Position numbers and translations under genes: made by a program
Shown here: in pieces, positions 2,545-31,822 of the stretch
Numbering within the stretch: the first letter of the stretch is position 1
Layout: every line of letters starts with the position of its first letter
The notes under the pieces: generated by a model
Databases searched by the model: none
What the model was told of the DNA's origin: nothing
The model's input: only the letters and a program-made list of their open reading frames with translations
UHGV virus genome: UHGV-0209088
DNA length: 64,000 nt
Source of the DNA: a virus
Direction: 5' to 3' (one strand)

Positions 2545-3189
2545 TTATTCGTCGTCTTCCTTATCGGTGACGGTCGTCAGGTCGTAGAACTGGCCATAGG
2601 TCAGCTGCTGGAACTCTGGCGGGATCTCGACGCTGCCGTGGCGCACCTCTCCAGGCTCCTTCGCCTTGCTGTTCGGGATCGCGAACAACAGGCAGTCATC
2701 GCGTCCCGGGCAGCGGCCACCGTAGGTGGTGAGCATGCTGATACCCCAGCCGCGATCAGCTGCGCTCCCGAAGCCGGTTCGCAGTACCCCGTAGTGATCA
2801 ATGATGTAGGCTTGCCATACCGGCAGGCTCTTCAGCTTCTCATTTGCCGCGCGAAGCGACGCATCCAGCTTCTTGTTGAACTCCCGGCCATCGGCGGTGT
2901 TGGCCTTGCCGCGAGCAATGATGACGTGCTGGTCACCTAAGAAGTCGCGTCTCTTGACAGTCATCTGGCAGGGGAACTGGTGGTCCGAAGGCCACGCCAG
3001 ACTCTGGATCAGCCCACCCTTATCGCCCCAACCGGCGCTGTCGATAAAGCCTGCGGCGCCAAACTCGCCAAGGATGCCGTTGATGATCTCCTTGCGCTGC
3101 TCTTCGATAGCGTTGTACCCGTCAATCAGGGCTTTAACCGCTGGACCCTCGACTTTGTAATAGTCGTAGTGCTTTGCGTTCTTTGACAT
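2545..3189 (-). CDS. hypothetical protein (214 aa)
   Basis: ORF with RBS gagagg; tightly packed after PAPS-reductase gene. Confidence 0.6.
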   Translation of the reverse strand: MSKNAKHYDYYKVEGPAVKALIDGYNAIEEQRKEIINGILGEFGAAGFIDSAGWGDKGGLIQSLAWPSDHQFPCQMTVKRRDFLGDQHVIIARGKANTADGREFNKKLDASLRAANEKLKSLPVWQAYIIDHYGVLRTGFGSAADRGWGISMLTTYGGRCPGRDDCLLFAIPNSKAKEPGEVRHGSVEIPPEFQQLTYGQFYDLTTVTDKEDDE

Positions 3190-5650: not shown

Positions 5651-5679
5651 ACTATATTGCATTACTCAAATATGAGCAA
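5651..5679 (-). promoter_or_regulatory. sigma70-like promoter (TTGCTC-N17-TATAGT) overlapping palindromic operator TTACTCAAATATGAGCAA
   Basis: minus strand -35 (5674-5679), -10 TATAGT (5651-5656), 17-nt spacer; palindrome 5662-5679. Confidence 0.55.
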
Positions 5680-6660: not shown

Positions 6661-7202
6661 CAGTTCCACCTTTACCGCAAAGCATTGATTGCGCGCATAA
6701 ACCTTATGGAACTGAAAACGGAACCAGCGCTCAGTTCCAGTTCCAGTTCCATCTACAGTTCCATTTGCTCAGCGGCTCATTAACGGAGGCGGAACTGCCA
6801 GCCGGAACTTCTGGCCGGAACTGCTGGTTCCGCTACGCAGATCAATAGCTTACGCTGATTACACCACCCCGTAAGCATGAGTCAGTTCCGGGGCGGTTCC
6901 AGTATTTATCTATATAAATCAGGTGCTTGCTCAAAATTGATGAAATGGAACTGCTTTTTTGCGGAAAAATACAATACCCATACATGTGTGTGAGTGGGGG
7001 TGAGGGTGTAACAGATTTGATCATGACACCTCATTCTCACGTAGTCCTATGTAGGGTGTAGAATTCAGTTCCAGTATGTGTGTTTGTCTCTATATAATAT
7101 ATATATCTTATTGATAAATAATAATAATAATAATAGGAGGGGATGGAACTGGTGCCGGAACTTTGCCGGAACTGGATGGAACTCAGCAGCACACCCAGTT
7201 CC
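6661..7202. repeat. iteron cluster: 17 copies of GGAACT(G)/(C)AGTTCC core in two subfamilies (GCCGGAACT and ATGGAACTG), including a triple tandem AGTTCC
   Basis: counted cores at 6661,6708,6732,6739,6745,6756,6791,6804,6817,6883,6947,7066,7145,7157,7168,7178,7196 in non-coding DNA. Confidence 0.8.
7091..7135. repeat. AT-rich tract with (AAT)6 microsatellite, embedded in iteron region (possible DNA unwinding element)
   Basis: tatataatatatatatcttattgataaataataataataataata. Confidence 0.6.
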
Positions 7203-8660: not shown

Positions 8661-8679
8661 TAGGGCGCACATAGGGCGC
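8661..8679 (+). promoter_or_regulatory. tandem direct repeat TAGGGCGCACATAGGGCGC (copy A of 6), T7/K11-promoter-like
   Basis: 19-bp element recurring 6 times upstream of rightward genes. Confidence 0.5.
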
Positions 8680-8714
8680 AGATTATTCAAAAAAGATAAG
8701 TTGACAGGTGGTAT

Positions 8715-8732
8715 TTACTCAAAAATGAGTGA
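8715..8732 (+). promoter_or_regulatory. palindromic operator-like site TTACTCAAAAATGAGTGA
   Basis: member of TTRCTCA-N4-TGAGYAA family; 40 nt upstream of gene start 8775. Confidence 0.4.
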
Positions 8733-10169: not shown

Positions 10170-10425
10170 ATTCGAACCGGTGAGAACCGTCGCGGACATG
10201 AAAACCCTCGACCTTGAGCAGGTGTCCGATGGATACCTCGCAGCCATTGACGGCTATGTCCTGAAAGGCACTGAGAGCCGCAGTTTCGTGCATGGCTGGC
10301 GCAACGGCATGGTCGACGCTGGTCAGGTATGCCCAGATGAGCACCAGCAGGCCCTGGCGCGCGACATCATCGCCACCAAGTACGATCTCTTTGACCGCGG
10401 GGGCCAGGATGGCAATTCTGATTGA
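10162..10425 (+). CDS. hypothetical protein (87 aa, GTG start)
   Basis: RBS ggagg 5 nt before GTG 10162; upstream part of track ORF is R/S-rich out-of-context overlap. Confidence 0.45.
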   Translation: MDKFEPVRTVADMKTLDLEQVSDGYLAAIDGYVLKGTESRSFVHGWRNGMVDAGQVCPDEHQQALARDIIATKYDLFDRGGQDGNSD

Positions 10426-11002
10426 TAGCGGCACGCCGGAGGCGGATAAGAACTTCTGGGCCACTACGCCGGAGTGCTTTCAGGATGGGCAGGCGCTCTA
10501 CGGTCGCCCGTTCGCGGTCGATGTGTGCGCCGAGCCGCTGACTGCGAAATGCCAGCGCTACTACGGCAACCCGGCACTGTACGACGCGGTGCTGGACTAC
10601 CGCACCGGCGCTGATGTCCGCGCCATGATGCGTGAATCCGGCAACATCTGCGTCGCCCTCGACTCTCTGGCGGTCGATTGGCCCGAGCACTGGTGGTGCA
10701 ATCCACCGTTCGATCACAAGCTGGCATTCATCGGGCAGGCCCGCCGTCAGCAGGCCGCAGGCCGTCCCGGCATGATGCTGCTGCCGTATGAGCCGCTGGC
10801 TGGCTGGTGGCGCAAGCGCCTTGCGTTCGGCGTCATCGTCTACGAGCCTGATGGCCGCTACCAGTTCTGCGAGCGTGACGGCGTGACCCGCAAGCAGGGT
10901 GCAAACTTTGGTTCCGCGCTGGTGGTATTCCCGACCCATCACATAGGCGAGTCTCCGCGCATAAGATTTGAACGCGGTATTGGACAGCTTGCTCAAAAAT
11001 GA
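10409..11002 (+). CDS. phage-type DNA N6-adenine methyltransferase (pfam05869 Dam-like, 197 aa)
   Basis: WATTPECF near N-terminus, D.CA...K..YY, and WWCNPPF catalytic motif, the hallmark order of small phage Dam MTases. Confidence 0.75.
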   Translation: MAILIDSGTPEADKNFWATTPECFQDGQALYGRPFAVDVCAEPLTAKCQRYYGNPALYDAVLDYRTGADVRAMMRESGNICVALDSLAVDWPEHWWCNPPFDHKLAFIGQARRQQAAGRPGMMLLPYEPLAGWWRKRLAFGVIVYEPDGRYQFCERDGVTRKQGANFGSALVVFPTHHIGESPRIRFERGIGQLAQK

Positions 11003-12501: not shown

Positions 12502-12520
12502 TAGGGCGCACATAGGGCGC
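12502..12520 (+). promoter_or_regulatory. tandem direct repeat TAGGGCGCACATAGGGCGC (copy B)
   Basis: ends 20 nt before ATG 12541; leaves no room for a sigma70 promoter downstream. Confidence 0.5.
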
Positions 12521-12540
12521 TAAATCACCAAAAATGAGGA

Positions 12541-12885
12541 ATGAAGATGGACAATCAGCACCGCAAGATCGTCGGCTATCGCGAGCTGACACAGGCCGAA
12601 ATCGACCTGATGAACGAAATCAAAGCGAAAGGGAAGGAGCTGTTAGCGCTCCATGACAAAGTGGTGGAGTTGATTGGCGAACAGGATTTGGTGCCAGCAA
12701 TCATGGCTGCTGCAGACCATAACTCTAAGGGTATGTCTTACATGATCCCACCTAAGCAGGACGCTGATGTCATGGCGCGACACGCAATCGCAGAACCACG
12801 CCGCTGGGCGTCCATCGGCAAGACCGATCTCCAGAAGGGCATCATGGCGCTGGTGCGCGCCGTAGCCCAGCCGACTGACTGCTAA
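12541..12885 (+). CDS. hypothetical protein (114 aa)
   Basis: strong RBS tgagga. Confidence 0.6.
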   Translation: MKMDNQHRKIVGYRELTQAEIDLMNEIKAKGKELLALHDKVVELIGEQDLVPAIMAAADHNSKGMSYMIPPKQDADVMARHAIAEPRRWASIGKTDLQKGIMALVRAVAQPTDC

Positions 12886-13405: not shown

Positions 13406-14026
13406 ATGACCGAACCGAAGAAACCAACCAGGGCGAGGAAAGCGCCCGCGAAACCCGGCGCCACAAAGGCGAGCGGGGTATCCGCTATTGGGCAGAAGGT
13501 CACCGACGCCGCCAAGACTGGCCGCCGTGGCTTTTCCGATGAGCTGAAAGCTGCCGCCCGCGCGCTGTGGGAGGGCGACCCGAATATCAGCATGGCTGAT
13601 GTCGCCGCAGAGGTGGGCGTCACCGTGCGCGCCATGCGGCGCTGGAGCCAGGATGAGAACTGGTCGAAGCGTCAGGCCGATATGTCCGAGCGCGCTCATG
13701 CGGCTGCCGACCAGTACAAGAACAAGCTCTCTGAGCTGGGGCCGGAGATCACCACCGAGCAGCAGAAGCAGGCCGAGTCCGACGCAGCGGAGGAGACCGC
13801 CGTGCAGCTGCGCGCCCAGGTGCTCGACCGCCACCGGAAGGAATGGAACGCGCCGCGCAAGCTCTCCTACGACGCGGTGAAGGCCAAGAACTTCGACCAG
13901 ATGAAGATGGCCAAAATCACGGCTGAGGCGCTGACCCTGATCCAGAACGGCGAGCGCAAGGCGTGGGGCATCGATTCCGGGGGCGATGGGCAAACCAACG
14001 TGAAAGTCATTATTGAGCGTGAGTGA
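13406..14026 (+). CDS. putative terminase small subunit / HTH DNA-binding protein (206 aa)
   Basis: FSDELKAAARALWEGDPNISMADVAAEVGVTVRAMRRWSQDE resembles the transposase-like HTH of Terminase_2-type small subunits; sits directly upstream of ParB-MTase as in many enterobacterial prophages. Confidence 0.45.
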   Translation: MTEPKKPTRARKAPAKPGATKASGVSAIGQKVTDAAKTGRRGFSDELKAAARALWEGDPNISMADVAAEVGVTVRAMRRWSQDENWSKRQADMSERAHAAADQYKNKLSELGPEITTEQQKQAESDAAEETAVQLRAQVLDRHRKEWNAPRKLSYDAVKAKNFDQMKMAKITAEALTLIQNGERKAWGIDSGGDGQTNVKVIIERE

Positions 14027-15543
14027 TGGATAAAAACCTCGAAAAGATGCTGGGCTTCCGGCCTGATGCCATCCCGCAAATGCGGCTCAAGCCGGTTGAA
14101 TCTCTGGTGGCCTACGCCCGCAACACCCGCACCCATTCAAAGGTGCAGGTCGAGCAGATCAAGCGCTCTATGCTGGAGTTCGGATGGACGAACCCCATTC
14201 TGGCGGATGATATGGGCATCGTGGCCGGGCATGGTCGCGTTATGGCTGCCGAAGAGCTGTACAAGGCCGGTGAGCAGATCCTCTTCCCGAACGGCACGCC
14301 GATCCCCATCGGCCAGGTGCCGGTCATCGATTGCACCGGCTGGTCAGACGCGCAGCGCCGGGCGTACATCATCGCGGATAACAAGCTGGCCCTGAACGCC
14401 GGCTGGGACGATGACATGCTGAGCCTCGAGCTGAAGGAGCTGGACGCGGCGGGCTATGACCTGGATGTCATCGGGTTCGATGAGAACGAGCTCGCGGAGC
14501 TGCTGGCCGATCCCGAGCTGGATCTTGATAGCGACAAAGACCCGGATGAGACACCGGACCTGCCTGATGCGCCGGCGAGCCGCGAGGGCGACACCTGGAT
14601 CCTCGGCGCGCACCGGGTTCACTGCGGCAGCGCGACCAGTATGGATGCATGGGACCACCTGATGCAGGGCGAACTGGCCAACGCGGTATGGACCGACCCG
14701 CCATACAACGTCGATCTGGGCCTGAAGAACAAGCGGATGGATAAAGCCATTGGCGGCGAGCGGTTCGCCACTGGTGCGATCGCCAACGACAAGATGAGCC
14801 TGGAAGAGTTTGAGGCGCTGCTCTACGACGCGTTCAGCTGCCTGTTCTCGGTCATGCAGGCAGGGGCGGCCATCTACGTGGCCCATTCCGACAAGGCCGG
14901 GCGCGAGTTCCGCGAGCAGTTCGAAAGGGCTGGCCTGCACTTTAGCCAGATGCTCATCTGGAAGAAGAACGTCCACGTTCTGGGGATGGCCGATTTCCAG
15001 CCCATTCACGAGCCGATCATGTACGGCTGGAAGAAGGGGAGCCGTCACAAGTGGCACGGCGGCCGCAAGCAGACCACCGTCATGGAGATAGGCGAGGGCG
15101 GTCCGATCTCCCGGGATGAAGCCGGGCGCTGGCTCATCAAGGTGGGTGACAGCGTGCTGGTCGTGGACGGCCAGGCGGAACTGGCGGAGATCCCCTCGAC
15201 CGTGTTCAATGTGCCGAAGCCGGAGAAGTCCGGCCTGCACCCGACGCAGAAGCCGGTGGAGCTCATCGAGCGCATGCTGCGCAACTCTGCCCGCGGCGGC
15301 GATATCGTGGTGGATGCGTTCGGCGGTTCGGGCTCAACGCTGATTGCCGCTGACCGTCTGGGCATGTGCGCCAGGCTGATGGAGCTGGAGCCGCGCTTTG
15401 TCGATGTCATCGTTCGCCGCTGGCAGGACTACACCGGGCGCCGGGCGGTTCACGCGCTCACCGGCGAGGAATTCCCCGAAGAGGGGCAGGAGCGGAAGAC
15501 CGGCCCAATCCTCACCGACAACAGCGATACGGATGTGTTTTAG
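14026..15543 (+). CDS. ParB-like nuclease domain fused to beta-class DNA (N6-adenine/N4-cytosine) methyltransferase (505 aa)
   Basis: N-terminal ParB/Srx-like region; DPPYNVDLG (motif IV) followed later by FGGSGSTLIAA (motif I). Confidence 0.85.
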   Translation: MDKNLEKMLGFRPDAIPQMRLKPVESLVAYARNTRTHSKVQVEQIKRSMLEFGWTNPILADDMGIVAGHGRVMAAEELYKAGEQILFPNGTPIPIGQVPVIDCTGWSDAQRRAYIIADNKLALNAGWDDDMLSLELKELDAAGYDLDVIGFDENELAELLADPELDLDSDKDPDETPDLPDAPASREGDTWILGAHRVHCGSATSMDAWDHLMQGELANAVWTDPPYNVDLGLKNKRMDKAIGGERFATGAIANDKMSLEEFEALLYDAFSCLFSVMQAGAAIYVAHSDKAGREFREQFERAGLHFSQMLIWKKNVHVLGMADFQPIHEPIMYGWKKGSRHKWHGGRKQTTVMEIGEGGPISRDEAGRWLIKVGDSVLVVDGQAELAEIPSTVFNVPKPEKSGLHPTQKPVELIERMLRNSARGGDIVVDAFGGSGSTLIAADRLGMCARLMELEPRFVDVIVRRWQDYTGRRAVHALTGEEFPEEGQERKTGPILTDNSDTDVF

Positions 15544-15577: not shown

Positions 15578-15612
15578 GAAACGGCAATGCAAATCAATGC
15601 GTTGCCGTTTTC
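15578..15612 (+). terminator. rho-independent terminator (acggcaatgc...gcgttgccgt + TTTTCGTTT)
   Basis: perfect 7-bp GC-containing stem plus T-run. Confidence 0.6.
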
Positions 15613-15621
15613 GTTTGTGGT

Positions 15622-15640
15622 TAGGGCGCATATAGGGCGC
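15622..15640 (+). promoter_or_regulatory. tandem direct repeat TAGGGCGCATATAGGGCGC (copy C)
   Basis: same family. Confidence 0.5.
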
Positions 15641-15655
15641 ACCGCAAAGTATTTC

Positions 15656-15684
15656 TTGCTCATATTTGAGTAACTGCGTTACAC
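15656..15684 (+). promoter_or_regulatory. sigma70-like promoter TTGCTC-N17-TTACAC overlapping palindrome TTGCTCATATTTGAGTAA
   Basis: -35 15656-15661, -10 15679-15684; followed by structured 95-nt leader. Confidence 0.5.
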
Positions 15685-15778
15685 TTCACTTGAGGTAACG
15701 GCTATTCCCGCGTTACCGGACCCAGTTCTACTGGCGTGACAAAAACAATCAACCGCGAACCAACGCGGTAGGGATTTT

Positions 15779-17560
15779 ATGAATATTACATATGGCTCTG
15801 TGTGCAGCGGCATCGAAGCTGCATCCATTGCATGGGAGCCGCTGGGGCTGAAGCCAGCGTGGTTTTCCGAGATTGAGGCTTTTCCGTCTGCTGTTCTGAA
15901 GCACCACTGGCCGCACGTCAGCAACCTCGGAGATATGACCAAAATCGCCGCCGCTGTGCGTGCTGGCACCGTTCCTGCTCCAGACATAGGCGTGGGTGGC
16001 ACACCTTGTCAGGCATTTTCAGTCGCTGGCGCTCGCGCTGGCCTTTCAGACCCTCGCGGTCAACTCACCATTTCATACGTGGAATTAGCCGATGCAATTG
16101 ACGACACCCGAACCGCAGCCGGAAAACAGCCAGCCATCTTCGTCTGGGAGAACGTGCCCGGAGTCCTCAGCTCCAAAGACAACGCTTTCGGAGCCTTCCT
16201 TGGACTGCTTGCCGGGGAAGACTGTGAGCTACAACCGCCAGGGGGAAAATGGAAGAACGCTGGTTGTGTGCTTGGACCCAAAAGAACAATCGCGTGGCGG
16301 GTCGTTGATGCCCAATATTTCGGAGTGGCCCAACGACGCCGCCGTGTGTTTGTTGTCGCAAGTGCTCGAACCGATTTCGATCCCCGAAAAGTATTTTTTG
16401 AGTCCGAAGGCGTGCGCCGGGATACTGCGCCGAGCCGAAGCGCGGGGTCGGCAGTTGCCGCCCTTACTGCGAATGGCGTTGGAACATGTGGTGCGGACGA
16501 CAACCAAGGACAAGCAGGACACCTGATCGCTGCGTTCGGCGGTGGGAACTGCTCAGGCGCGCTGGATGTAGCGGCCTGCCTGACAGCGCGCGGCCAGCGC
16601 ATTGACTTCGAAGTCGAGACCTTTCTCGCCCAGTACAGCAGCACCGGGCAGGGCGCATGGGCTGAGGGCTTTGGCACGCTGCGCGCCAGAGAGCAGGAGA
16701 GCCACGAGCATCTGGCGGTGATGGCCGTTCACGGCACGCAGGATCCTGACACGCTCAACGAGCTGGCGCACACGCTGGGGCGCAATCAGGGGCAGGAGAA
16801 CGCCGTCATCGCGTTCAACAGCAAAGACCACGGGCAGGATGCCGCGGAGGAAATATCCCCGACGCTGCGCTCCGCTGGTCACGGTACCAGCCACGCGAAC
16901 GCTGGCGCGCCGCCTGCTGTGGCCTATGGCTTCCAGCCGCGTATTGCCCGCAACGGTCGCGGCGATATGGGCGATGTTTGCCACGCTCTTACTGCGGAGG
17001 CCGGGGAGACCGGGAAGGGGGATTCTGCGCCGCATGTGGCCGTTGCCTTCGCTGAGAACAGCCGCGGCGAAATCCGCCTTCAGGATGGCGACGGCGGCAT
17101 CACCGGCCCGCTGTCTACCGGGGGCGGAAAGCCAGGGCAGGGTTATCCGGCAGTGGTCGCCTTTCAGGAACGCGGTCGCGCTGATGGTCGCACGCTGGAG
17201 ATTAACGGCGATCTGGCCTACGCGCTGACAGCGCCAAACGGCGGTGGCCGGGCGCAGGAGCGGAACATTGTCGATTTCCGCACAATGGCCGTGCGTCGCC
17301 TGACGCCGCGCGAGTGCGAGCGCCTGCAGGGCTTCCCCGATGACCACACGCTCATCCCATACGGGAAGGCTATCAGGCCGGAGAAGCTGGAAGCGGACTA
17401 CGCAAAATATCTGATGCGCGGCGGTCGCATGACCTTTGACGAGTGCTGCCGCGCTGCCGCTGATGGCCCGCGTTACAAGGCAATCGGCAATTCAATGGCG
17501 GTGCCGTGCATGGCTTGGATCGGTCGCCGCATCCTGCAACAGCTCGAGGGGGCTATGTGA
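15779..17560 (+). CDS. DNA (cytosine-5) methyltransferase, Dcm-like, with ~330-aa Gly-rich variable/TRD region (593 aa)
   Basis: motif [14 protein letters not shown] motif [15 protein letters not shown] motif FVWENVPGV, motif VIII QRRRVFVV, motif [16 protein letters not shown]. Confidence 0.9.
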
Positions 17561-18240: not shown

Positions 18241-18425
18241 AGACGCTGCTGAAGGTGGTTCTGTGGGTGGCGGGGATAGCCGCCTTTATCTGGCTGCTTG
18301 GGGTTGCCGGTGAACATGATCGCCAAGACTGCGAGGTGCGTATCGCGCAGGAGCTTGGCACAACCGCTCGCTACATCGACGGCCATTGCATGGTGAAAGG
18401 GTACGGGAGGGTGGATGGCCGGTAA
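18237..18425 (+). CDS. small membrane protein (62 aa)
   Basis: GTGA overlap, RBS ggggaag; N-terminal TM segment. Confidence 0.45.
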
Positions 18426-19207: not shown

Positions 19208-19247
19208 CCTCTATAAATTCAATCACCTGCGCTGCGCCCTGACATTC

Positions 19248-19266
19248 TAGGGCGCAGGTAGGGCGC
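19248..19266 (+). promoter_or_regulatory. tandem direct repeat TAGGGCGCAGGTAGGGCGC (copy D)
   Basis: same family; preceded by palindrome gcgcccta...tagggcgc hairpin. Confidence 0.5.
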
Positions 19267-19281
19267 AATGTTCAATATTAC

Positions 19282-19310
19282 TTGCTCAAATATGAGTAAT
19301 TGAGTTACAT
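19282..19310 (+). promoter_or_regulatory. sigma70-like promoter TTGCTC-N17-TTACAT overlapping palindrome TTGCTCAAATATGAGTAA
   Basis: -35 19282-19287, -10 19305-19310; followed by leader homologous to 15685-15778. Confidence 0.5.
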
Positions 19311-19402
19311 TATCGGCTATCCCGTTTATTCACGGGAAACATGGCCCAGCGCTGCTGGCGTGACGACAATCAATAAGCCGCGAAAAACGCGGCGAGGAAT
19401 TT

Positions 19403-20653
19403 ATGAATCGATATGAACTACACCTCGGCAACTGCCTTGAGGTGTTGAAGGACTTACCAGACAACTCCGTAGACAGTATCGTCACCGACCCGCCATACGG
19501 CCTTAGCTTCATGAACAAGAAGTGGGATTATGATGTGCCGAGCGTCGAGGTATGGTCCGAATGCCTGCGAGTTCTGAAACCTGGCGGTCATTTGCTGTCG
19601 TTCGCTGGTACCAGAACTCAGCACAGAATGGCCTGCAACATAGAGGACGCTGGCTTCGAGATCCGCGACATGGTGTCATTCCTCTACGACACTAATGAAA
19701 CCGCTCAGGCACTGATTGAAAGCCTGACACCGGAACAGTTGAAAATGCTGGACGCCACCTTCGGTCGAGACTCTATGCTTGCATGGGTGTACGGCAGCGG
19801 TTTCCCTAAATCTCACAACCTCAAAGATGACTGGACAGGCTGGGGCACCGCCCTGAAACCAGCGCTGGAGCCAATCACCGTAGCCCGTAAGCCGTTCAGA
19901 GGAACCGTTGCGGCAAACGTGCTGAAGCATGGCACCGGTGCTCTGAATATTGATGTGTGCCGTATCTCAACGGCAGATAAGCTCGGTGGTGGCGCGGAAA
20001 AGGCGAAGAATGCTGGTCTAATCCATGAAGGGTGGCAGCGTCCGTGGATGAGCGACCCGCAAGCCGCTGAAGCGTATGCGAAACGGATAAGAGAAAATGT
20101 CGAGAAGAGCGAAGCGCTAGGCCGCTGGCCTGCCAACTTGATTCACGACGGCAGCGATGAGGTTCTTGACCTTTTCCCTGAGACCAAATCAGGGGTCATG
20201 AAAGCAGGAACCCGGCGCGCTGCTCAGGATGAGCCTGGGAGCGTTTGTTACGGTACATACGGCGGCAATGCCGCGAGCACCGATACCTATGGGGATTCCG
20301 GTAGTGCTGCCCGTTTCTTCTACTGCGCGAAAGCTACTCGCAAAGACCGTAACGAGGGAATGCAGGATCCAGGCCCGCAGTTCGAACACGGCGCGACGCT
20401 GCGCAAGGTGGAGAATACCGAAACCAAAGGCAACAACCATCCGACAGTGAAGCCGACAGACCTGATGGCCTATCTATGCAGGCTGGTCACGCCTCCTGGC
20501 GGAGTGGTGCTCGACCCTTTCATGGGAAGCGGAAGCACTGGAAAGGCGGCAATGCGAGAAGGGTTCCGATTTATCGGCATTGAGATGGACGCGGACTACC
20601 TTGCGATCGCTGAGGCGCGCATTGCGCATGAGGCCGGGAAGGGGGCAGCATGA
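19403..20653 (+). CDS. beta-class DNA methyltransferase (N6-adenine, DPPY type; 416 aa)
   Basis: DSIVTDPPYGLSF near N-terminus, DPFMGSGSTGKAA near C-terminus. Confidence 0.85.
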   Translation: MNRYELHLGNCLEVLKDLPDNSVDSIVTDPPYGLSFMNKKWDYDVPSVEVWSECLRVLKPGGHLLSFAGTRTQHRMACNIEDAGFEIRDMVSFLYDTNETAQALIESLTPEQLKMLDATFGRDSMLAWVYGSGFPKSHNLKDDWTGWGTALKPALEPITVARKPFRGTVAANVLKHGTGALNIDVCRISTADKLGGGAEKAKNAGLIHEGWQRPWMSDPQAAEAYAKRIRENVEKSEALGRWPANLIHDGSDEVLDLFPETKSGVMKAGTRRAAQDEPGSVCYGTYGGNAASTDTYGDSGSAARFFYCAKATRKDRNEGMQDPGPQFEHGATLRKVENTETKGNNHPTVKPTDLMAYLCRLVTPPGGVVLDPFMGSGSTGKAAMREGFRFIGIEMDADYLAIAEARIAHEAGKGAA

Positions 20654-21135
20654 TGCCCGAGCAACCAAAACGCATCTCGTATAACGAGAGAGGTGCAACT
20701 GCGCCTTACGACCCGCGAGAGGTTTTTCCGCCCGAACTGACTGAATCCAGCAGAAAGATGACTCGCATTCTGGCGCGCGGCGGGCTGCAAAAACACATCC
20801 GCCAGTTCGGCGCTGATGGGCGCTTTACCTTCCACGCCGGGCTGACGGTCGAAGAGGCGGCAGCGCCAGGGATAGTCGAGGCTGTGAAGCGGTCGACGCT
20901 GCATGAGTTCGCCTCCGGTGACCTGGTGGTCATCCGCGGCACCACCGAAGCCGTTGAGATCGAGAAGGTCTGCGGCGTGTTCCTGATCCTGCGCTCATAC
21001 GGCGATGGCGGCTGCAACGCGTTCCGCCGCGTGAACCCGCCGCACGGTCGATACAGCTACGGGCGCATTCACATCTACAAAGGGCATGTTGAGCCAAACG
21101 GGAGGGTCTATGGACCTGGAAAAACACAGAAATAA
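20650..21135 (+). CDS. hypothetical protein (161 aa)
   Basis: ATGA-coupled ORF, RBS gaaggggg. Confidence 0.55.
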   Translation: MMPEQPKRISYNERGATAPYDPREVFPPELTESSRKMTRILARGGLQKHIRQFGADGRFTFHAGLTVEEAAAPGIVEAVKRSTLHEFASGDLVVIRGTTEAVEIEKVCGVFLILRSYGDGGCNAFRRVNPPHGRYSYGRIHIYKGHVEPNGRVYGPGKTQK

Positions 21136-22237: not shown

Positions 22238-23086
22238 ATGGAAGTAATTACTCGCATCCGCAGTGAGTCCGCGGAGTTGCGTCGCGTATCCGATCTAAAG
22301 GTCTATGAGTTCAAGGGGCATCAGGGAACGGACAATCTTAAATCCAATGATCATTTCGCCGTACTTATGAACAGCGGCGGTAGACTGAGCGTACAGTGGG
22401 AAGGCAATAAAACCTTGTGCAATGAAGTTGACGCAGGGGATGTGATATTCAGCCCGTCAGGCTCGACAATCTCATGCAATCATCGAGAGGCCGTAAGCAG
22501 CTCTTTCATAGCACTGAAACAGTCAGTGTTCGTGAACGCTTCGAAAGATCATGTTGATTACGGTAGTATTGATTTTACCGGGCGACACATCAGGCGGCCA
22601 GTGACCACGACCATGGCCATGACCCTTCGCAACCTGAGTTCAGTTGAATCCTATCAGGAATGGCCGATGCTGATCGAGTCTGCCACTCTCGCGTTTGTGA
22701 TAGCGCTGATTTCTGCGCTGTCTCCTGCTGCTACAAAGGCGTTCCGTGAAAAGCCATACGGGATAGGTGATGTGCGCAAGAAGCGGGTGGTTGAGTACAT
22801 CGACGCGCACCTCACCAGAACGATATCCCTGGCTGAACTGGCGTATGAGGTTGGACTGAGCCAGTACCACTTCTCGCGGCTTTTCAAGAAGCGCTTCGGC
22901 ATGAGTATCATGGAATACATCAGCATGCGTCGGGTTGAGGTGGCGAAGGAAAAGCTGCAACTGACCGGCGATACGCTGGCGAGTATCGCCCACGACTGCG
23001 GGTTTTGCAGTCAAAGCCACTTCACTGGGGTTTTCGTGAGGATCACCGGCGTTACGCCAGCAGCGTACCGTAATGGCGCAAAGTAG
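22238..23086 (+). CDS. AraC/XylS-family transcriptional regulator (282 aa), probable moron
   Basis: C-terminal double HTH (LAELAYEVGLSQYHFSRLFKK...IAHDCGFCSQSHFTGVF); N-terminal cupin-like domain; locally low GC. Confidence 0.85.
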   Translation: MEVITRIRSESAELRRVSDLKVYEFKGHQGTDNLKSNDHFAVLMNSGGRLSVQWEGNKTLCNEVDAGDVIFSPSGSTISCNHREAVSSSFIALKQSVFVNASKDHVDYGSIDFTGRHIRRPVTTTMAMTLRNLSSVESYQEWPMLIESATLAFVIALISALSPAATKAFREKPYGIGDVRKKRVVEYIDAHLTRTISLAELAYEVGLSQYHFSRLFKKRFGMSIMEYISMRRVEVAKEKLQLTGDTLASIAHDCGFCSQSHFTGVFVRITGVTPAAYRNGAK

Positions 23087-23164: not shown

Positions 23165-23183
23165 CAGGGCGCAGATAGGGCGC
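23165..23183 (+). promoter_or_regulatory. tandem direct repeat CAGGGCGCAGATAGGGCGC (copy E)
   Basis: same family, first unit T to C. Confidence 0.45.
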
Positions 23184-23245
23184 AACAACACGCAAAATCG
23201 TCGTGACCATACACTGGCTGCATCATTCTTTTGCGGCCAGTATGT

Positions 23246-31792: not shown

Positions 31793-31811
31793 TAGGGCGC
31801 TCATAGGGCGC
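31793..31811 (+). promoter_or_regulatory. tandem direct repeat TAGGGCGCTCATAGGGCGC (copy F)
   Basis: preceded by ccgccag...ctggcgg hairpin; ends 11 nt before ATG 31823. Confidence 0.5.
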
Positions 31812-31822
31812 AGGAGAAAGGA

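Follow-up and report, generated by a model that had tools for sequence, protein, structure and literature searches.

A structured leader within a promoter cassette preceding exchangeable DNA-modification genes of a phage

Phages change their DNA-modification genes quickly against host restriction, and how the captured genes come to be correctly expressed is poorly understood. The stretch of DNA analyzed here, 64,000 nucleotides (nt) of the virus genome UHGV-0209088 (the window), bears on this question at two places, where a C5 cytosine DNA methyltransferase gene and an N6/N4 DNA methyltransferase gene each stand behind a leader of about 90 nt, the first of which occupies positions 15685-15778. 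An initial annotation had described the two leaders as homologous and structured, and had proposed that these unrelated genes acquired the same promoter-leader cassette and with it a shared post-transcriptional or translational control, such as attenuation or the autoregulation typical of methylase genes. To what, then, do the leaders belong, and at which level do they act? At this locus the promoter and the structured leader stay fixed while methylase families are exchanged exactly at the start codon. The reading that we favor, and regard as probable, is that of a cassette belonging to two slots of the phage backbone, with leader hairpins that are under selection for base pairing and act on the mRNA.

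The leader pair and its relatives

Local alignment of the two leader bodies (15686-15762 and 19311-19386) gives a score of 39, a value reached by none of 5000 dinucleotide shuffles (mean 13.4, standard deviation 2.2, maximum 25), and no other 80-nt stretch of the window scores above 25. The similarity therefore extends beyond the promoter and the ribosome-binding site, and all of the sequence blocks named in the initial annotation were located in both copies (Table 1). The order of parts is also identical, with tandem boxes, a palindrome, the hexamer TACAYT, the leader, a Shine-Dalgarno (SD) sequence and ATG, and the gap between boxes and palindrome is 14 nt in both. Two details of the earlier comparison have to be given up. 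The block GGCTAT(T)CCCG is offset by ~9 columns relative to the conserved part, forms a hairpin loop in leader 1 and a stem arm in leader 2, and is not retained in relatives; the second codon AAT, common to both genes, is not conserved across the family.

Each leader of the window folds into three hairpins, H1, H2 and H3. A covariance model (R1) of the ~55-nt core, which extends from GTGAC through H3 to the start codon, was built from 11 copies. With filters off, R1 matches the window only at 15730-15784 (71.7 bits, E = 2.6e-13) and 19354-19408 (70.1 bits, E = 5.7e-13), and it does not match before the Dam-like gene (10292-11002) or the 506-residue methylase gene (14023-15543) of the same window. 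A total of 28 copies, scoring 29-72 bits, was obtained from the window and 16 related loci, 26 of them outside the window; the further copies came from pattern scans, from loci reached through the backbone methylase (506 residues) and from ten contigs reached through homologues of that methylase, for which there were 7915 candidates. The window belongs to a ~90-kb phage, the closest GenBank relative of which is Aeromonas phage ST4, with about 80% nucleotide identity, and more distant relatives are the Pseudomonas phages Dolphis and Jeremy and the Bordetella phage PHB04. ST4 possesses the full cassette before a different C5 methylase, with GCCACG/CGTGGC as its H3 stem.

In the consensus core, [C]GTGA[C/A] is followed by 12-17 nt of A/C-rich sequence, often containing ACAATCAA, and by a 6-bp stem that is usually GCCGCG/CGCGGC. 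The H3 loop has 5, 6 or (once) 8 nt, is composed of 70% A and 23% C, and ends in AA in all 28 copies. The SD sequence lies 1-2 nt after the stem, and in 27 of the 28 the ATG follows the stem by 8-10 nt. Upstream of the core the copies differ. In the ST4-like genomes, about 45 nt with H1 and H2 lie between promoter and core. H1 is present in both leader subtypes but is non-homologous between them, and it falls outside the family-wide consensus: that of leader 1 is retained in L106 and L305 with an outer G-C to U-A change, while the CCCG/CGGG stem of leader 2 is retained, with variable loops, in ST4, L106, L297, L301, L302 and L305. Five short forms (L049, L053, L071, L084 and L103) have a -10-like hexamer directly before GTGAC, so that the core would be their entire 5' untranslated region (5'UTR). 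Finally, slot 2 of L302 and the copy in L298 have the leader without a recognizable promoter, which indicates that the leader is a module separable from the promoter.

A blastn search with the leader against GenBank phages matched only ST4, and a collection of species-representative genomes contained no true core matches. The 62 matches of a hairpin/SD pattern in that collection, all in high-GC genomes, were rejected as chance because R1 matches only the stretch specified by the pattern; in metagenomes the 86 matches of the pattern were likewise mostly chance, only L071, L084, L103 and L106 being real, and all five matches of CTGGCGTGAC-N-ACAATCAA in IMG/VR were chance. Rfam gave no match at the gathering threshold in the whole window, and near the leaders only chance-level matches (E = 3-10) far below gathering scores. 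Literature searches brought up no account of ST4 and none of any regulatory element in the group to which these phages belong. The leader is thus absent from Rfam and from the literature searched. For a poorly studied ~90-kb group, it provides a testable RNA element, with 28 copies and covariation, together with two recombination hot spots.

Hairpin pairing and the level at which the leader acts

Among the aligned H3 stems, 98.7% of 156 cells are paired, and double-sided changes occur at four of the six pairs, in 12 cells. The variants observed are GCCGCG/CGCGGC, ACCGCG/CGCGGT, GCCACG/CGTGGC, GCCATG/CATGGC, GCTGTG/CACAGC and GCCGAG/CTCGGC. None of 500 shuffles reached the observed covariation score or the observed pairing percentage, and controls in which the stem was slid were 17-55% paired. 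H2, aligned without gaps across 11 long leaders, is 100% paired and shows compensatory changes in three of its five pairs; a further four leaders form an unrelated hairpin at the H2 position, ending 1-2 nt before GUGAC. RNAalifold, applied to 12 long leaders, independently returned exactly H2 and H3. H1 and H2 hold their pairing and drift in sequence, while H3 holds two invariant pairs, the AA of the loop and its spacing. The compensatory substitutions in H2 and H3, including the wholly different stems at the H2 position, imply selection for pairing, and so bear out the conserved hairpins that had been proposed for these leaders.

Selection for pairing in a palindrome could in principle concern the DNA, with H3 as an operator or a methylation-sensitive feedback site for a dimeric protein such as the AraC-family regulator or the methylases. 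H3 is indeed a perfect inverted repeat rich in CG dinucleotides, adjoining methylase genes, and an AraC-family gene lies near the slots in the window (22238-23086) and in relatives. However, the half-sites are 5, 6 or 8 bp apart depending on the copy, the enzymes of the cargo differ in specificity and are not all methylases, and AraC-type proteins bind direct repeats, for which the tandem TAGGGCGCA pairs upstream are better candidates. Differing H3 stems also coexist in the two slots of one genome (L084, L071, L300 and L303, for example), and the half-sites, although different, stay complementary, as fits pairing. The varied stems within one genome and the variable loop length therefore argue for pairing of a single strand rather than for one dimeric protein on a double-stranded palindrome, and a role of H3 as a DNA site is very improbable.

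As for which strand pairs, a terminator scan of both leaders revealed no sense-strand hairpin with a U-tract, and neither the folds nor the leader alignment contained a conserved alternative (antiterminator) pairing. Since, in addition, an open reading frame is found in one leader subtype only, the attenuation suggested initially is not supported. On the opposite strand, the scan flags H3 at 19393-19377 and 15769-15752, and also in L049 and L103; in all 28 copies, 4-6 of the 8 nt adjoining the stem are T on that strand, on which the A-C pair of one copy would moreover be a wobble. H3 and its T/G-rich tail might accordingly form an intrinsic terminator against antisense transcription from newly arrived cargo, and so insulate the backbone. 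Yet the tails are interrupted (UUAUUGAUUG, UGAUUGUUUU) and weak for terminators, the neighboring genes all lie on the + strand with no antisense transcription unit evident, and two outer-pair G-U wobbles of H3 wobble only on the + strand. An antisense terminator would also leave the 1-2 nt SD spacing and the position of H2 before GUGAC unexplained, and we consider it improbable.

The open reading frame in question (uORF) belongs to the subtype-2 leaders; neither leader 1 nor any of the short forms has it. In ST4, L106, L297, L301 and L302 the frame comprises 21 codons, with a TGA that overlaps the main ATG. In the window, the 3' arm of H1 provides the uORF with an SD-like GGGAA. It could provide translational coupling in the subtype-2 leaders, but a coding role is doubtful because the peptide changes freely where the H2 stem changes. 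A leader peptide was rejected as a feature of the family on the same grounds, together with the confinement of the uORF to one subtype.

The hairpins could instead hide the start region. Pairing of the SD sequence with the GGCTATTCCCG block or with the H1 loop was examined in the alignments and is not conserved across the copies. Sequestration by H3 was also rejected: the SD sequence lies outside the hairpin, and the energy required to open the region from the SD sequence to +12 is not raised, being 4.97 kcal/mol in the natural leaders versus 5.88 kcal/mol in shuffled ones, and lower in the natural leader in 22 of 27 cases.

These results are compatible with the main rival to a recognized hairpin, namely that H3 is passive, a 5'-proximal stabilizer against 5'-end-dependent decay or an insulator of the initiation region that leaves the SD sequence free and needs no specific factor. 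Compared with shuffled leaders, the natural ones make the start region slightly easier to open, the A/C-rich spacer and loop are unable to pair with the G-rich SD sequence, in the short forms about 17 nt would separate the hairpin from the 5' end, and other leaders of this phage are CA-rich too. The E. coli ompA-type 5'UTR stabilizers protect the mRNA in this manner without hiding the SD sequence, and they share with the present leaders an SD-adjacent hairpin, a single-stranded segment and a further 5' hairpin. However, such stabilizers are not normally so conserved in sequence, nor limited to one functional class of genes. A passive H3 would be expected to drift as H1 and H2 do, yet most copies retain GCCGCG, and the invariant pairs, the AA and the distance to the SD sequence are all held; other early genes with the same type of promoter, furthermore, are without H3. 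A purely passive hairpin therefore appears rather unlikely.

It thus appears that a recognition role for H3 is the most likely one, because the SD sequence is not hidden, no terminator is formed and the sequence is far more conserved than that of H1 and H2. In the mechanism that we envisage, the cassette would comprise, in order, the terminator of the preceding operon, two TAGGGCGCA boxes, a sigma-70-like promoter under a palindromic operator, and a 5'UTR whose terminal ~55-nt core consists of GUGAC, an unstructured A/C-rich stretch and the 6-bp G/C stem of H3. H3 would serve as a recognition hairpin beside the ribosome-binding site, through which a factor, either of the host or specific to the clade, determines how the cargo is translated or how stable it is, and the G/C-rich bases of H3, being locked in the stem, would keep the initiation region open whatever the cargo. 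That a specific trans-acting factor recognizes H3 is the more tentative part of this scheme, possible but short of probable.

Several systems illustrate how such a hairpin might be used. In phage Mu, a hairpin occludes the start region of mom, and the small phage protein Com, by binding next to the hairpin, opens it. That case, too, concerns a phage DNA-modification gene with a hairpin near its ribosome-binding site and control at the mRNA level, but the likeness is one of analogy only: H3 includes neither the SD sequence nor the AUG, no occlusion of either is predicted, and no Com-like gene turned up here, no search having been aimed at RNA-binding factors. The operators of T4 gp43 and of the MS2 coat protein have a short conserved stem and a constrained loop at or 5' of the SD sequence, and keep their pairing despite stem variation, as H3 does, and a protein bound at such a place would block the ribosome; they are autogenous, with one protein per mRNA. 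Here, by contrast, one type of hairpin stands before many unrelated enzymes, and any binder must therefore be a separate factor. The nut sites of lambdoid phages consist of boxA and a boxB hairpin with a GNRA-like pentaloop, and serve an N-type antiterminator protein. H3 resembles boxB in its G/C stem (5-6 bp), its A-rich loop of 5-6 nt and its place in a leader just 3' of an early promoter. However, its loops (AACCAA, AAACAA, AACAA) are not of the GAAAA/GNRA kind, only 3 of 28 start with G, and the hairpin abuts the SD sequence. The aligned leaders contain no boxA-like motif, and no N-like protein was identified, none having been searched for.

The idea of autoregulation by the methylases is not supported, as the core precedes C5, N6/N4, phrog_757 and DpdA-like enzymes as well as a non-methylase backbone gene. 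The element is not bound to a gene, with at least four unrelated enzyme families behind it and with the Dam-like and 506-residue methylases lacking it. Hence, neither attenuation nor methylase-type autoregulation survives from the shared control proposed initially, whereas control at the mRNA level as such is a reasonable inference from the homology of the leaders, the compensated hairpins and their absence from Rfam.

Several observations weigh against this reading. The 28 copies come from related phages whose two slots are able to recombine, so that the counts of compensatory cells do not represent independent events; gene conversion could make H3 appear more conserved in sequence than selection alone would, and the alignment used (A3) had been fitted to the covariance model. 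The folding energies of the whole leaders depart only mildly from the usual (z = -1.5 and -1.8), the effect on accessibility is small (0.9 kcal/mol), and on the opposite strand H3 and the T/G-rich tail together look like an intrinsic terminator. No candidate RNA-binding factor turned up, in an analysis that included no search aimed at one. Lastly, the putative promoters were not called by a strict sigma-70 consensus scan (9-of-12 threshold), and we infer their activity, as well as the transcription start.

Exchange of cargo genes at the cassette

The genes behind the core are predominantly DNA-modification genes. In 24 of the 28 copies, the core precedes a C5 or N6/N4 methyltransferase recognized by Pfam, of several sizes and families; one further copy, in L106, precedes a DNA methyltransferase of phrog_757 (255 residues), and one, in L068, a DpdA-like transglycosylase of phrog_887. 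The remaining two copies (L297 and L305) represent empty slots, in which the leader precedes a small protein 89% identical to that encoded at 20650-21135 of the window, the backbone gene next after the N6 methylase.

In L068, the core (56.8 bits) lies with an H1-like hairpin at 2941-3030 on the - strand, before the DpdA-like gene, placing a 7-deazaguanine-type enzyme behind the same leader in a phage unrelated to the window. Apart from this, nothing in the contig resembles the window; its genes include those of an integrase, an invertase and a DNA polymerase, and the leader was not found in P2-like phages having its DpdA-like gene. The L068 copy suggests that the leader has spread horizontally or that the assembly is chimeric.

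Comparison with relatives places the borders of exchange at the cassettes. Relative to L106, homology ends at 15782 (ATG+3) and resumes at 17547, with the phrog_757 methylase replacing the C5 gene. Relative to L297, it ends at 19406 and resumes at 20658, making the N6 methylase reading frame of the window an exact present/absent indel. Relative to L302, homology ends at 15685, in the -10 box, after which L302 has a subtype-2 leader with another C5 methylase. Some leader cores (those of the window, L297, L305 and L106) are 100% identical in phages that share about 85% identity in the flanking genes. Moreover, 80 viral loci with homologues of the N6 methylase (39-63% identity) yielded no core match. 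Because of the breakpoints at ATG+3 in L106 and L297, the empty slots in L297 and L305 and the absence of the core from all 80 of these loci, the cassette is, as judged from sequence comparison, a feature of the backbone that marks two exchange slots and not one carried by the methylases. The direction of acquisition is thus the reverse of that proposed initially, with modification genes being exchanged behind a resident cassette.

In the proposed mechanism, the modification genes of both slots would be exchanged by recombination at the cassette, either at the -10 box or at the start codon, and the cassette would double as a homology arm; this role is directly supported by the breakpoints. One might suppose that nothing else is at work, the similarity of the leaders being a by-product of recombination among cassettes that are only homology arms with promoters, and the hairpins having no function of their own. 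The coincidence of breakpoints and cassettes, and the identical cores between otherwise diverged phages, would both be expected from such a process. The compensatory changes in H2 and H3 and the unrelated stems at the H2 position nevertheless require selection for pairing, and make this the least probable of the explanations considered.

Among known arrangements, the cassette most resembles the promoter-early stem-loop (PeSL) cassettes of T4-type phages, repeats of a promoter and a stem-loop that lie in hyperplastic regions and mediate modular shuffling (PMC2839356, Arbiol et al. 2010; PMC4122927, Comeau et al. 2014). Both combine stem-loops with a sigma-70-type promoter, a putative one in the present case, end in the SD sequence and start codon, are repeated before accessory genes, and coincide with breakpoints of insertion, deletion and replacement, here 15782, 19406 and 15685. 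TTGCTC-N18-TACAYT, the putative promoter sequence here, recurs in the window but lies below the 9-of-12 consensus threshold. There are, however, differences. The stem-loop of PeSL lies in or around the promoter and acts as a terminator or attenuator for upstream transcription (PMC2839356). In the present cassette, H2 and H3 lie downstream of the -10 box in the 5'UTR, with no sense-strand U-tract and with H3 abutting the SD sequence, and a separate terminator-like hairpin is found before each cassette (15578-15611 at cassette 1). The phage lineage is another one, there are only two slots, the cargo consists almost exclusively of DNA-modification genes, and the cassette includes an operator and activator-like boxes.

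A bolder version of the favored reading, which we consider unlikely, would make the cassette a plug-in expression dock for anti-restriction genes, with H3 and GUGAC as the operator of an RNA-binding regulator that gives all cargo uniform translational timing. If true, this would be a phage counterpart of the promoter and attachment platform of integrons, working via homologous exchange, and would represent a new class of cis-regulatory RNA with a regulator that is likewise new. In annotation, the core model can mark anti-restriction slots of variable content on phage contigs from metagenomes, and for engineering, the leader offers a natural, cargo-independent expression leader.

Upstream elements and the surrounding early region

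Table 1. Features of the two cassettes and associated elements in the window
Feature	Coordinates	Strand	Remark
Terminator-like hairpin with T-run	15578-15611	+	intrinsic type; 14-pair stem, then TTTT CGTTTG
Tandem boxes TAGGGCGCA-TA-TAGGGCGCA	15622-15641	+	14 nt upstream of -35; candidate activator site
Putative promoter 1	15656-15685	+	-35 TTGCTC in palindromic operator TTGCTCATATTTGAGTAA (15656-15673); -10 TACACT (15680-15685)
H1, leader 1	15694-15717	+	GGTAACG-loop-CGTTACC; from fold; specific to leader-1 subtype
GGCTAT(T)CCCG, copy 1	15700-15710
H2, leader 1	15722-15734	+	CCAGU-UCU-ACUGG; ends 1-2 nt before GTGAC
Core, leader 1	15736-15784	+	GTGAC, A/C-rich spacer with ACAATCAA, H3, SD, ATG
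GTGAC, copy 1	15736-15740		3' end of the CTGGCGTGAC block of the initial annotation
ACAATCAA, copy 1	15745-15752
H3, copy 1	15752-15769	+	ACCGCG-AACCAA-CGCGGT
SD, copy 1	15770-15774	+	AGGGA
ATGAAT start, copy 1	15779
Slot-1 cargo	15779-17560	+	C5 cytosine DNA methyltransferase, 593 residues; PF00145, E = 2.3e-35
Tandem boxes TAGGGCGCA-GG-TAGGGCGCA	19248-19267	+	inverted box copy (19233-19241) pairs with first box
Putative promoter 2	19282-19311	+	-35 TTGCTC in operator TTGCTCAAATATGAGTAA (19282-19299); -10 TACATT (19306-19311)
GGCTAT(T)CCCG, copy 2	19315-19324
H1, leader 2	19321-19336	+	CCCGU-loop-ACGGG; from fold; specific to leader-2 subtype
uORF	19341-19376	+	MAQRCWRDDNQ*; subtype-2 leaders only
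H2, leader 2	19346-19358	+	CCAGC-GCU-GCUGG
Core, leader 2	19360-19408	+	GTGAC, spacer with ACAATCAA, H3, SD, ATG
GTGAC, copy 2	19360-19364		3' end of the CTGGCGTGAC block of the initial annotation
ACAATCAA, copy 2	19366-19373
H3, copy 2	19377-19393	+	GCCGCG-AAAAA-CGCGGC
SD, copy 2	19394-19398	+	GAGGA
ATGAAT start, copy 2	19403
Slot-2 cargo	19403-20653	+	N6/N4 DNA methyltransferase, 416 residues; PF01555, E = 1.7e-31
All TAGGGCGCA tandem pairs	8661-8680, 12502-12521, 15622-15641, 19248-19267, 23165-23184, 31793-31812	+

The promoter/operator TTGCTC-N17-TTACAY precedes both leaders, beginning at 15656 and 19282, as the initial annotation had stated; the best reading of its -10 hexamer is TACAYT, at a spacer of 18 nt, and both putative promoters are recognized by their sequence and recurrence. 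The arrangement is not specific to methylases. The palindrome TTGCTCAWATWTGAGTAA has 15 strand-matches in the window versus 0.06 expected, and overlaps, in the manner of an operator, the -35 box of putative early promoters at 1553-1570, 5662-5679 and 8715-8732 as well as at 15656-15673 and 19282-19299; weaker copies lie at 6927, 28603 and 39342. Downstream of the other operator copies lie genes for small proteins of no recognizable function, and the leaders of these genes are without the core. The recurrence of the palindrome suggests that a single repressor-like protein governs a regulon.

A pair of TAGGGCGCA boxes in an 11-bp register, which was absent from the earlier account, lies upstream of both promoters. 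The window contains six tandem TAGGGCGCA-NN-TAGGGCGCA pairs versus 0.1 expected, all on the + strand. They lie 14-34 nt upstream of operator promoters or directly before an SD sequence, and are also found in many related contigs, sometimes just 5' of a terminator. The pairs are possible binding sites for a regulator encoded by the phage, the AraC-family protein being one candidate.

At the left edge of cassette 1, the terminator-like hairpin closes the upstream operon of the 506-residue methylase, an arrangement likewise found in ST4 and L106. In cassette 2, an inverted box (TGCGCCCT), situated 6 nt 5' of the first box, forms a G/C hairpin with it (19233-19256) that may terminate the preceding operon; this inverted box and box arrangement is also present in ST4 and L106.

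The slots lie in a variable early region, between the conserved 506-residue methylase and the AraC-family gene. Directly behind one of the box pairs, at 12541-12885, lies a gene whose product contains an Acb2/Tad1 hairpin domain (PF24729, E = 2.6e-17), a domain typical of sponges that counter CBASS and Thoeris defence, and the region from ~8.7 to 23 kb, which includes the Dam-like methylase, looks like an early anti-defence block. Within the operon of slot 1, a gap of 174 nt (18241-18414) includes a terminator-like hairpin at 18269-18284, with TTTATCT after it; in L297, the 93% relative, a DUF551 gene occupies this position, which constitutes another indel. In the variable region of other relatives, a TROVE/Ro60-like gene is present (L298, 9454-10776; L300, 12089-13408), preceded by noncoding gaps of about 490 nt and 390 nt, respectively, which could hold Y-RNA-like genes. 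The same region also carries toxin-antitoxin pairs, PemK/MazE-like in L305 (12841-13381) and TumE/HVO_A0114-like in L304 (11009-11667).

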